From: Escherichia phage vB_EcoS_MM-1
DNA: 64,000 bases
Strand: one strand, 5' to 3'
Sequence record: PV577657
The notes under the pieces are model-generated. The model had not been told where the DNA came from. It ran no database searches and was given only the letters and a program-made list of their open reading frames with translations. This document shows positions 4,851-25,469 of this stretch, in pieces. A program made the position numbers and the translations under genes. Positions within the stretch are counted from its first letter, which is position 1. Each line of letters opens with the position of its first letter.

Positions 4851-4888
4851 ATACAGAAAAGCCCGCGCTCTCGTAGGAAACGCGGGCT
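4851..4888 (-). terminator. rho-independent terminator for SPFH gene
   Basis: GCCCGCG...CGCGGGC hairpin; T-run on minus strand. Confidence 0.65.
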
Positions 4889-18440: not shown

Positions 18441-18482
18441 TTTCATACCCAGGCCTGTATATTACCAGTCTAGCTTTTTAGC

Positions 18483-22364: not shown

Positions 22365-22554
22365 GGGTTTAAACGCCGCTTTGGAAAACGCATTAATGCA
22401 GCACTGGGAAACTGGCTATAAGGATGGTGTTGAATCCTGCGCTACTATGCTAGAAGTTATTGCTAATACCTTAATGGAGAAAGGCAATAAAGAATTAGCT
22501 GAGCTATTAGACAGTATTGGGCAAAACTTCAGAGAACAGGTGAAAAATGCGTAG
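22333..22554 (+). CDS. hypothetical protein
   Basis: 73-aa ORF. Confidence 0.5.
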   Translation: MAFSKPMLPDKGLNAALENALMQHWETGYKDGVESCATMLEVIANTLMEKGNKELAELLDSIGQNFREQVKNA

Positions 22555-23383
22555 ATTAATTATTATTAGCGGTGCAGGTTTGAGTGTTGAAAGTGGTGTA
22601 CGAGCTTTTCGTACTGATACTGCTAGTGGTAAAGCATTGTGGGATGACTATGATCTAGAAGAAGTATGTAATATTCATGCCTTTCGTGGTAATTTTTATC
22701 ATAAAACCCACATGTTTTACAACAAGCGTCGTGAAGAGCTAAAAACTGTTGAACCCAATCTTGCGCATTTGCGTATTGGTGAATGGTATAAACAATATCC
22801 AGGTCAAGTAGTAAACTTGACTACCAACGTTGATGACCTTATTGAGCGTGCTGGCGTCCCACATAGTGACATTCTGCACATTCACGGATATTTAAAAGAG
22901 GTTGTTGTAGCTGATAGCTACAATAGTAGCAATAAACGGATTATTGATGTAGGATACAATTCTATTGATCCAGATGATTATAAATGGGTTAAACCTAATG
23001 TAATCTTCTTTGGAGAGCATGCTCCTGCATACGCAGAAATGTATAATGTTTTTGATGGTATTACCAGTCAAGATATGATCATTGTGGTTGGTTGCTCTAA
23101 CCAAGTAATTAACTTCTACTGGGAATTATTTCCTGTTCTTAATTTGACTGCTGCGAAACTTATGGTTGTTAACTACTATGATAGTGCCCTCGCAGCGGAA
23201 CCGGTCTATCAAGGTATGACTCGTAGTGAGATGTACCAGCTGGAGGAACGCGGTATCCCTTACTGGAGTAAAGGTGCGGTAGATGCTTTCAGTGACCCTG
23301 ATTTTATTGCTCGTGTAGAAGCTCATTTAGAGGGTAGACCTTATGTGTCGAGAAGCAAGAGAAACAGGTATGTCCATAGTTAA
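22547..23383 (+). CDS. Sir2-family (sirtuin-like) NAD-dependent protein
   Basis: GAGLSVESGVRAFR NAD-binding motif, NVDDLIERAG, HIHG catalytic His; no obvious Zn-Cys module. Confidence 0.75.
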   Translation: MRRLIIISGAGLSVESGVRAFRTDTASGKALWDDYDLEEVCNIHAFRGNFYHKTHMFYNKRREELKTVEPNLAHLRIGEWYKQYPGQVVNLTTNVDDLIERAGVPHSDILHIHGYLKEVVVADSYNSSNKRIIDVGYNSIDPDDYKWVKPNVIFFGEHAPAYAEMYNVFDGITSQDMIIVVGCSNQVINFYWELFPVLNLTAAKLMVVNYYDSALAAEPVYQGMTRSEMYQLEERGIPYWSKGAVDAFSDPDFIARVEAHLEGRPYVSRSKRNRYVHS

Positions 23384-23552
23384 ATCTGTATATACACATC
23401 CCGACGATATATTTGTATGGGCAGATGGTAGTTGGTGCTATCGCTGTGAGCTGTGGGAGATGGACTATAAATCCGATGACTATGGTGTTATATATGTTGA
23501 TACGGTTGAGTATGATACGTTCTTAGAAAGGAACAAAAATGGAAATAAGTAA
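23370..23552 (+). CDS. small hypothetical protein
   Basis: ORF-track 23343..23552; probable start MSIVKSVY. Confidence 0.45.
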   Translation: MSIVKSVYTHPDDIFVWADGSWCYRCELWEMDYKSDDYGVIYVDTVEYDTFLERNKNGNK

Positions 23553-24045
23553 TACTCCAATTATTTTTCTAGATATTGATGGGGTGCTCAATTCGAGCAT
23601 CTCCCACCATCATGCACCTGATGACGAAAAGATTTTCTTTGGAAGTGACTGGGTTTTCAAGCCGCTTCTCAAGGCTTTTCAGGACTTTATTCGTCCTTCT
23701 CCAATAATGATTGTTGGAGTATCATCTTGGTTCTCTGTCAGAAATGAGATGGAGAACGTTCAGATTATGACCGGATTAGGTCTTATCGATCGTTTTCTTG
23801 GTACAACGGATTTTACTGGGGGTGGGTTATCTAGGGGTAATTCTGTCCTTCGCTTCGTTGAAAAGCATAAGCTCAAACATTGGTGTGTTCTGGATGACGC
23901 TGGTGCTATGATGTATCAGTATCCAACGGTTATAGTCAACGGTAGAACTGGAATAAATCTTCAAGATTTAATGGCTGTTAGCTATATGTTAGAGTTTAGT
24001 CCAGATCTTGAAATGTGTAAATCCTTACAACAATTTAAGGTGTAA
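23539..24045 (+). CDS. HAD-superfamily hydrolase-like protein
   Basis: N-terminal FLDIDGVLN motif (HAD motif I); 168 aa. Confidence 0.65.
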   Translation: MEISNTPIIFLDIDGVLNSSISHHHAPDDEKIFFGSDWVFKPLLKAFQDFIRPSPIMIVGVSSWFSVRNEMENVQIMTGLGLIDRFLGTTDFTGGGLSRGNSVLRFVEKHKLKHWCVLDDAGAMMYQYPTVIVNGRTGINLQDLMAVSYMLEFSPDLEMCKSLQQFKV

Positions 24046-24047
24046 AT

Positions 24048-24476
24048 ATGTTCAATAATGTATTCTCTAAAGAAGCTAACCCAATTTTGGTTAACTTTTG
24101 GCGTACTCTCCCAGCTAGCCTGTATAATGAGGCTATTAACTCCTTGAAAATATGGTGTGAGAATAACGAAATCTCCTTTGCTTTTAAAGATGATATTGAT
24201 GAGGCCCCCTGTATTGGTTTAATTGTGCAGGTAGAGGATGGTCTTGAAGAGATTGTCGGCTGGAAAGAGTTAGATGAAATGGGCTTAATTTTTGCGTTAA
24301 ACTATAAGCTGTTTATGCCTGCTAAGCATCGCCTAGTTGTTAACTATAAAACTAGTGAATCTCCTGGTTTTCAGGTTAATGAACGTTATGGTTGGTCTTA
24401 CTCACCGGAAGAAGTAAATGAGGGGATTCAGAAACTTCGACGTTTCGGGTATATGATCCCAGGTTTAACTGCTTAA
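24048..24476 (+). CDS. hypothetical protein (paralog 1 of tandem pair)
   Basis: 142 aa; clear similarity to the disrupted downstream copy. Confidence 0.7.
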   Translation: MFNNVFSKEANPILVNFWRTLPASLYNEAINSLKIWCENNEISFAFKDDIDEAPCIGLIVQVEDGLEEIVGWKELDEMGLIFALNYKLFMPAKHRLVVNYKTSESPGFQVNERYGWSYSPEEVNEGIQKLRRFGYMIPGLTA

Positions 24477-24485
24477 GGAGGCAGA

Positions 24486-24877
24486 ATGGAACAAGTATAT
24501 TGGCGTCAGATTGACCCTAGTTTGGTGAAACGTGCGGAGAAGCTGCTACAACGTTGGTTGTGGGTAAGACAAGCCTCCTTCACTTTTCCGAGCAGCAAAC
24601 AGATGATCCCTGTATTGGTGTTTTCCTATCCGGCTACGCCGGGGAATGGGAATTGGATTGGAATGAATTGTCTGCTATGGGTTTAATTGTTGCCCTAAAT
24701 TTCTCTTTGTTCCATCCACGTGGGTTGGCCATACGTCGTGTGCCGGGTGATGGTTGTTCGCCCCATTTTTTACAGGTGGAAGATGATATTTGGGAGTACA
24801 CTCCAGATATTCTCGCAGAAGCTAAAGAACAATTAAATCGTGTTGGGATTTATGTTCCAGGCCTAAATGATGAATGA
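24486..24877 (+). pseudogene. frameshifted paralog 2 (or -1 frameshift gene)
   Basis: N-terminal homology to paralog 1 in frame of 24486, C-terminal homology in frame of 24554; frames join at CTTTTC run near 24584-24587. Confidence 0.55.
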
Positions 24878-25016
24878 TTTTTATTAGCTGAAATTTGTAA
24901 TCCGGGCTATTAGTGCTCGGATTATTACATAATCTTTTCAGTCGATTGACAGTCAAAATAAATTGTCGTTGACAATTTGGATGGATTATGTAATAATATA
25001 TGTATTGGAGGTGAGG

Positions 25017-25469
25017 ATGTCATTCACACAGCAAGAACTTTTAGATAACTTCCGATATGAAGATGGTAAGTTATTTAGAACTACAGGAAGAAATGCAGGG
25101 AAAGAATGTTGTGTTTCTACAGGTAACGGATATTATCGTATATCTCTAGGGAATAGGACTATGCTTCGGCATAGAGCAATATTTTTAATGCATCATGGAT
25201 ACTTACCTGATTTAGTAGATCATGTGAATACTATAAAAGGTGATGATCGTATTGAAAATCTTAGAGAGCAGACAGTATCCGGTAATCTAAGAAATATCAA
25301 ATATAAGAAAGGAATGCATGTTTACCCTTCTGGTAGTAAGAACTGGCAAGTGGTATTTACTATTAACCGTAAACGTATAGTTAAAGGAACATATGACAAC
25401 TATGAGGTTGCATGTTCTATGGCCAAGATGTTTAGAGGTCAATTATACGGTAGGGAATCAATCCAGTAA
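25017..25469 (+). CDS. HNH homing endonuclease (HNH + AP2-like DNA-binding)
   Basis: VDHVNTIKGDDRIENLR HNH motif; GGAGGTGAGG RBS before MSFTQQ. Confidence 0.8.
   Translation: MSFTQQELLDNFRYEDGKLFRTTGRNAGKECCVSTGNGYYRISLGNRTMLRHRAIFLMHHGYLPDLVDHVNTIKGDDRIENLREQTVSGNLRNIKYKKGMHVYPSGSKNWQVVFTINRKRIVKGTYDNYEVACSMAKMFRGQLYGRESIQ

Follow-up and report, generated by a model that had tools for sequence, protein, structure and literature searches.

The T5.106/T5.107 gene pair and its genomic setting

The window (the whole stretch of 64,000 nt that was analysed) contains two closely spaced genes in tandem on the + strand. The first of these, ORF A (24048–24476, 142 aa), is intact and was identified from the ORF call and profile matches as a T5.106 homolog of the DUF7415 / PHROG 2502 family. 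After a spacing of 9 nt begins the second copy, a T5.107 homolog (locus 24486–24877, +), whose product would have 130 aa once repaired. Reading of the sequence places a GGAGG Shine-Dalgarno for the second copy at 24477–24481 (+), 4 nt 5′ of its ATG (24486) and abutting the TAA stop of ORF A (24474–24476). ORF A and the conceptually fused second copy shared 35 % identity over 124 aa (E = 1e-21), and both matched PHROG 2502 (E = 1e-62 for ORF A and 4e-59 for the second copy) and Pfam DUF7415 (PF24187; 120.7 bits for ORF A and 101.3 bits for the repaired second copy, with a cut-off of 27). This homology is far above chance and the two loci are paralogs, as the first-pass annotation had claimed; both are assigned to the family by a profile score above the curated cut-off together with their conserved tandem position.

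The 1.1 kb around the locus is 100 % identical to Escherichia phage vB_EcoS_MM-2 (PV577658.1; window position = PV577658.1 position minus 31,892), a Tequintavirus obtained from German sewage with E. coli K-12 W3110 as the isolation host, and 90–97 % identical to hundreds of T5-like phages. The locus lies in the early region, among closely spaced + strand genes, after genes for Sir2 and for a HAD_SAK_2 protein. The latter, a T5.105 homolog (23539–24045, +), is the gene immediately upstream in the same cluster and codes for a phosphatase-like protein (73 bits, DxDGVL-type motif). It is labelled “Sir2 NAD-dependent deacetylase” in MM-2 and in the RefSeq record of AKFV33; HAD_SAK_2 is the HAD domain of “Swiss Army Knife” RNA-repair proteins, and the true Sir2 gene is at 22547–23383. 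A tRNA cluster (Phe-GAA, Trp, Glu, Tyr) is found at 389–728 on the minus strand, with Leu, Ser and Arg further downstream.

The annotations of AKFV33, ECOP18, JLBYU40, T5_ev212, EC148, IME178 and phiP4 show the same order, with the T5.105 homolog followed by the pair and then by the gene for a replication-origin-binding protein, and these seven phages all carry an intact 393-nt ortholog of the second copy. In the AKFV33 record orf109 is described as similar to T5.106, and the labels of this phage tie the pair to T5.106 and T5.107. The tandem is thus the conserved, already known T5.106/T5.107 pair of T5-like phages (Tequintavirus), whose members are DUF7415 paralogs of ca. 130–142 aa. It agrees with the pair of T5 itself (YP_006934 / YP_006935) in tandem order, in sizes (142 aa, and 130 aa when repaired) and in synteny, and the Tequintavirus orthologs are 90–98 % identical in sequence to the copies in the window; it differs in that the T5.107 homolog lacks here one G and is split over two frames. 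Downstream of the pair, within 24893–25469, there is an HNH endonuclease gene (HNH_3) with its own promoter-like site (24969–24997, 11/12 matches); AKFV33 also has this gene, whereas some relatives do not. About one quarter of the top matches lose alignment at window position ca. 24892 (query position 993), and the HNH gene has the appearance of a homing-endonuclease insertion that some genomes carry and others do not.

An exhaustive profile search gathered 148 representatives of the DUF7415 family. Many of the remote homologs are stand-alone proteins of ca. 70–110 aa, a good number of them near 80 aa, that cover the C-terminal core alone (profile positions ca. 56–120). The 53-aa Pfam DUF7415 model matches twice per T5-type protein (ORF A and the repaired second copy), and the AF2 model of ORF A (pLDDT 87.8) shows two helix-plus-strands halves; within each T5-type protein the domain may therefore be duplicated internally, besides the duplication at the gene level. 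The core is also found fused to a dATP/dGTP pyrophosphohydrolase (PF04447; P0161 and P0165), a thymidylate kinase (PF02223; P0091) and a DUF3850/ASCH domain (P0183). These fusions, together with the neighbouring Sir2 and HAD_SAK_2 “RNA-repair” HAD protein, hint at a role for DUF7415 in nucleotide or nucleic-acid metabolism. A PDB sequence search returned no match for the family, a BFVD search returned other DUF7415 proteins alone, and PADLOC found nothing. DUF7415 genes are called “exonuclease” or “tail tube protein” in several records, names for which the family and fold searches gave no support. A literature search found no paper on MM-2, DUF7415, T5.106 or T5.107.

The frame break in the second copy

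Two reading frames share the second copy. Frame 0 runs from ATG 24486 to TAA 24684–24686 (66 aa), and the −1 frame is open from 24521 to TGA 24875–24877. Over the ancestral N-terminal 35 codons (24486–24590, +; MEQVYWRQ...ASFTFP), the residues read in frame 0 are as in intact orthologs (P0026 and others), the homology running through the Pro codon CCG (24588–24590). Homology in the −1 frame begins at GAG, re-using G24590, and extends over the C-terminal 95 codons (24590–24877, +; EQQTDDPCIG...PGLNDE), which need G24590 to be read twice. The rest of the 66-aa frame-0 product, CDS0141 in MM-2, is an out-of-frame tail (24591–24686, +) of 31 non-homologous residues (SSKQMIPV...LLWV) followed by the TAA. 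Of the −1-frame part, MM-2 annotates only what follows ATG 24677 (window coordinates), as CDS0142.

Alignment with AKFV33 and ECOP18 opens a single gap, the relatives having CTTTTCCGGAGCAG and the window CTTTTCC-GAGCAG. One base is missing at 24590–24591 (+), where the relatives read CC[G/A/T] GAG and the window CCG AG. The alignment places the missing base as a G of CCGG at 24590, directly 3′ of a TTTT run (24584–24587, +) and outside it. A passage from frame 0 to frame −1 in this copy had already been described in the first-pass annotation, and it is confirmed near 24590. The junction had been put at ACT TTT CCG (24582–24590); the sequence of these nine positions is as stated, but the break is at G24590, 3′ of the T-run and not inside it. 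The T-run, proposed as the slip site, is not the lesion site nor its cause, because it is also 4 nt long in all intact relatives, which read TTT CCN GAG (Phe-Pro-Glu). A change in the length of the run is thus out, since TTTT is identical in the intact genes. The homopolymer error suggested for this run was wrong in that detail, the lost base being a G of the GG dinucleotide in CCGGAG, although a consensus error at this G is possible.

All of the 28 IMG/VR loci contain an uninterrupted ORF of 129–136 codons starting from the same ATG. The close relatives among them (24 loci) read TTT CCG/CCA/CCT GAG, with synonymous changes at the third position of the Pro codon. This variation, with the frame maintained, indicates a single reading frame under purifying selection; the window thus carries a frame-breaking indel that is absent from orthologs under purifying selection, as in a pseudogene or private mutation. 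An ancestral ...TTT CCG GAG... (Phe34-Pro35-Glu36) would have lost one G in the second copy. Ribosomes starting at ATG 24486 would then make 66 aa, composed of 35 native and 31 out-of-frame residues and ending at 24686, and the C-terminal 95 codons would be left behind in the −1 frame. On the AF2 model of the paralog (pLDDT 87.8), the cut maps to the first beta-strand, and only the N-terminal helix would remain in the truncated product.

Distribution of the deleted allele and the question of recoding

A 70-nt query against GenBank phages matched 211 records; among the 60 of these listed as a spread, the deleted allele occurred in MM-2 alone and the extra base was present in the other 59 of 59. 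A 44-nt junction query (megablast, 50,697 GenBank phage records) had PV577658.1 as its sole match; the extra-base allele cannot seed across the junction in this search, so a count of intact alleles is not applicable to it. Searches with an IUPAC pattern found no deleted allele and 24 intact ones in IMG/VR, and none and seven, respectively, in metagenome contigs. Every relative read at the site (28 IMG/VR loci, seven metagenome contigs and 59 sampled GenBank records) has an intact, single-frame gene, and no other assembly on record contains an exact copy of the truncated 66-aa product.

When the C-terminal part was used as a protein query, the matches were full-length orthologs of 128–136 aa and one 66-aa fragment (P0043), from Salmonella phage Kenya-K45 (OQ291061.1, L035), an UNVERIFIED record in which the T5.107 homolog is broken at 698–703. 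As in MM-2, a 1-nt indel disrupts the gene and the same internal ATG was taken as the start of a 66-aa C-terminal ORF; in contrast, the Kenya-K45 indel is a +G in a GGGGG run ca. 25 nt upstream of the lesion in the window, and the record is of lower quality. An added G in a G5 run indicates that artefactual breaks of the T5.107 homolog occur in databases. Judged from the sequences compared, the breaks in this gene arose sporadically and independently and do not reflect a conserved design.

Programmed −1 frameshifting, one of the explanations offered in the first-pass annotation, would have tRNA-Phe slip on UUU from 24585–24587 to 24584–24586, yielding a full-length protein of 130 aa with Ser instead of Pro35. 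In the U_UUU_C context a single P-site tRNA could re-pair, no stop interrupts the −1 frame at the site, and the phage has its own tRNA-Phe(GAA) gene (389–463). However, no X_XXY_YYZ heptamer in frame 0 exists in the overlap (24521–24686), which contains single-codon re-pairing sites alone, at 24522, 24585, 24609 and 24642. The fold of the downstream 90 nt (−25.7 kcal/mol, z = −0.82) was not significant, with 45 of 200 shuffled sequences folding as well, and no Shine-Dalgarno-like stimulator upstream of the site was evident in the sequence read. CCG is moreover not a rare codon in E. coli, and all relatives read at the site are single-frame with the same TTTT. The E. coli dnaX and lambda G/GT-type tail-chaperone −1 shifts similarly have overlapping 0 and −1 frames with a U/A-rich site in the overlap, but they use a conserved X_XXY_YYZ heptamer that is missing here; dnaX also has flanking stimulators, whereas no significant structure was found at this locus, and in phage tail-chaperone systems the two-frame layout is conserved across relatives, all of which are here single-frame. 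A productive −1 shift, whose layout is private to one GenBank record, is thus not supported, and we consider it very improbable. Programmed transcriptional slippage, which needs a long A/T run of typically 8–9 nt or more, is also out, the longest homopolymers of the overlap being of 4 nt (two TTTT and GGGG). The comparison with related phages that had been proposed along with these explanations found a single frame and a TTTT of length 4 throughout. The lesion is an ordinary recent mutation or a sequencing error, not recoding, and the locus says nothing new on the latter.

A functional split gene would also make use of both frames, with the C-terminal half being translated from ATG 24677, which overlaps the frame-0 stop (24684–24686), into 66 aa resembling the stand-alone DUF7415 cores. 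Such cores, of ca. 70–110 aa and spanning profile positions ca. 56–120 alone, are indeed common among the remote homologs, exactly this 66-aa ORF was predicted by the gene callers of both MM-2 and Kenya-K45, and the position of the ATG, 5 nt before the upstream stop, is compatible with termination-reinitiation. Nevertheless, there is no good Shine-Dalgarno upstream of 24677, the fragment would lack the W-x-E-L motif, which is invariant in the family and stands before MGL, and the arrangement is found in one record alone, so that we give this possibility next to no chance.

Recent pseudogene or consensus error

With the frame break private to MM-2 and the relatives intact, a recent pseudogene, as contemplated in the first-pass annotation, fits all the data. 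We consider it probable, if only just, that the break is a genuine, very recent deletion, not programmed, that abolishes the function of a dispensable accessory gene and leaves a nascent pseudogene. We infer accordingly for this reading that the base is truly absent from the phage DNA, and not from the consensus alone, and that the phage can do without the gene. A real deletion would suggest that growth on E. coli K-12 does not require the T5.107 homolog; the gene-essentiality papers that were checked do not cover T5-like phages.

The main competing explanation, which we regard as a serious one that falls somewhat short of an even chance, is an assembly or consensus error: the phage would carry CCGGAG and an intact 130-aa T5.107 homolog, the G having been dropped in sequencing or polishing. 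Single-base indels are the commonest type of error in deposited phage genomes, the allele appears in a single database record, and the coding sequence is as well conserved on both sides of the break as in intact relatives; additionally, a different indel affects the T5.107 homolog of the UNVERIFIED Kenya-K45 record. Against an error, the context is a GG dinucleotide without a long homopolymer, and the record was carefully finished, with annotated terminal repeats. The structural genes of MM-2 are of normal size and its assembly looks clean.

The distribution of indels over the genome also bears on the choice. In BLAST comparisons of most of the 64-kb window with AKFV33 and JLBYU40, the one at 24590 was the sole private 1-nt indel inside a conserved CDS; other private indels of the window are non-coding, at 552 (a 1-nt deletion in the Trp-Glu tRNA spacer), at 4864–4883 and 12311 (intergenic) and at 18453 (7 nt upstream of the nrdA start). 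Comparison of the rest of the genome with phage H8 revealed no conserved ORF broken in MM-2. The conserved genes in the comparable sequence (ca. 56 kb of the window plus ca. 27 kb of the arms) thus have no other frame-breaking indel, which argues against an error. A lone indel that lies in a small accessory gene is closer to what one expects of a tolerated real mutation than of an error placed at random, and, because no other conserved gene of MM-2 contains a frame-breaking indel, a real mutation leading to a recent pseudogene is slightly more likely than an error.

Changes private to the second copy were G26W and C84R and, in the comparison with close relatives, L95F; intact relatives have comparable private changes at conserved sites, such as G26V in one locus (L010) and F76L and W103L in another (L003). 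There was no excess of private synonymous, non-synonymous or amino-acid changes in the broken copy with respect to intact relatives, and hence no sign of decay. This indicates that the lesion, if real, is very recent; an error predicts the same pattern.

A genuine deletion could, in principle, have been favoured. The single-G allele would then be both real and selected, with loss of the T5.107 homolog, or its trace expression through rare tRNA-Phe slippage on U_UUU_C, aiding MM-2 on its isolation host. One example would be the removal of a protein sensed by a host defence. We regard a selected loss as very improbable, and nothing in the analysis speaks positively for it; if true, it would provide the first phenotype for the DUF7415 family.

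For either a nascent pseudogene or a consensus error, the main value of the locus is in curation. The “hypothetical proteins” CDS0141 and CDS0142 of MM-2 each represent one half of a single known T5 gene. Their annotation should either mark it as frameshifted or as a pseudogene, or be corrected once the reads have been checked.

Gene-breaking lesions were also observed elsewhere. In one IMG/VR locus (IMGVR_UViG_2974579171_000001, L006), the ORF A homolog carries a private R131* that leaves the T5.106 homolog 12 residues shorter, being another sporadic lesion in the pair. The working draft of H8 (AC171169.12, L073) contains 1-nt indels at ca. 17630, ca. 17877, 4582 and 5373 that break ORFs intact in MM-2, among them one of 239 codons (24398–25114 in the MM-2 record), illustrating how common such lesions are in draft phage records.
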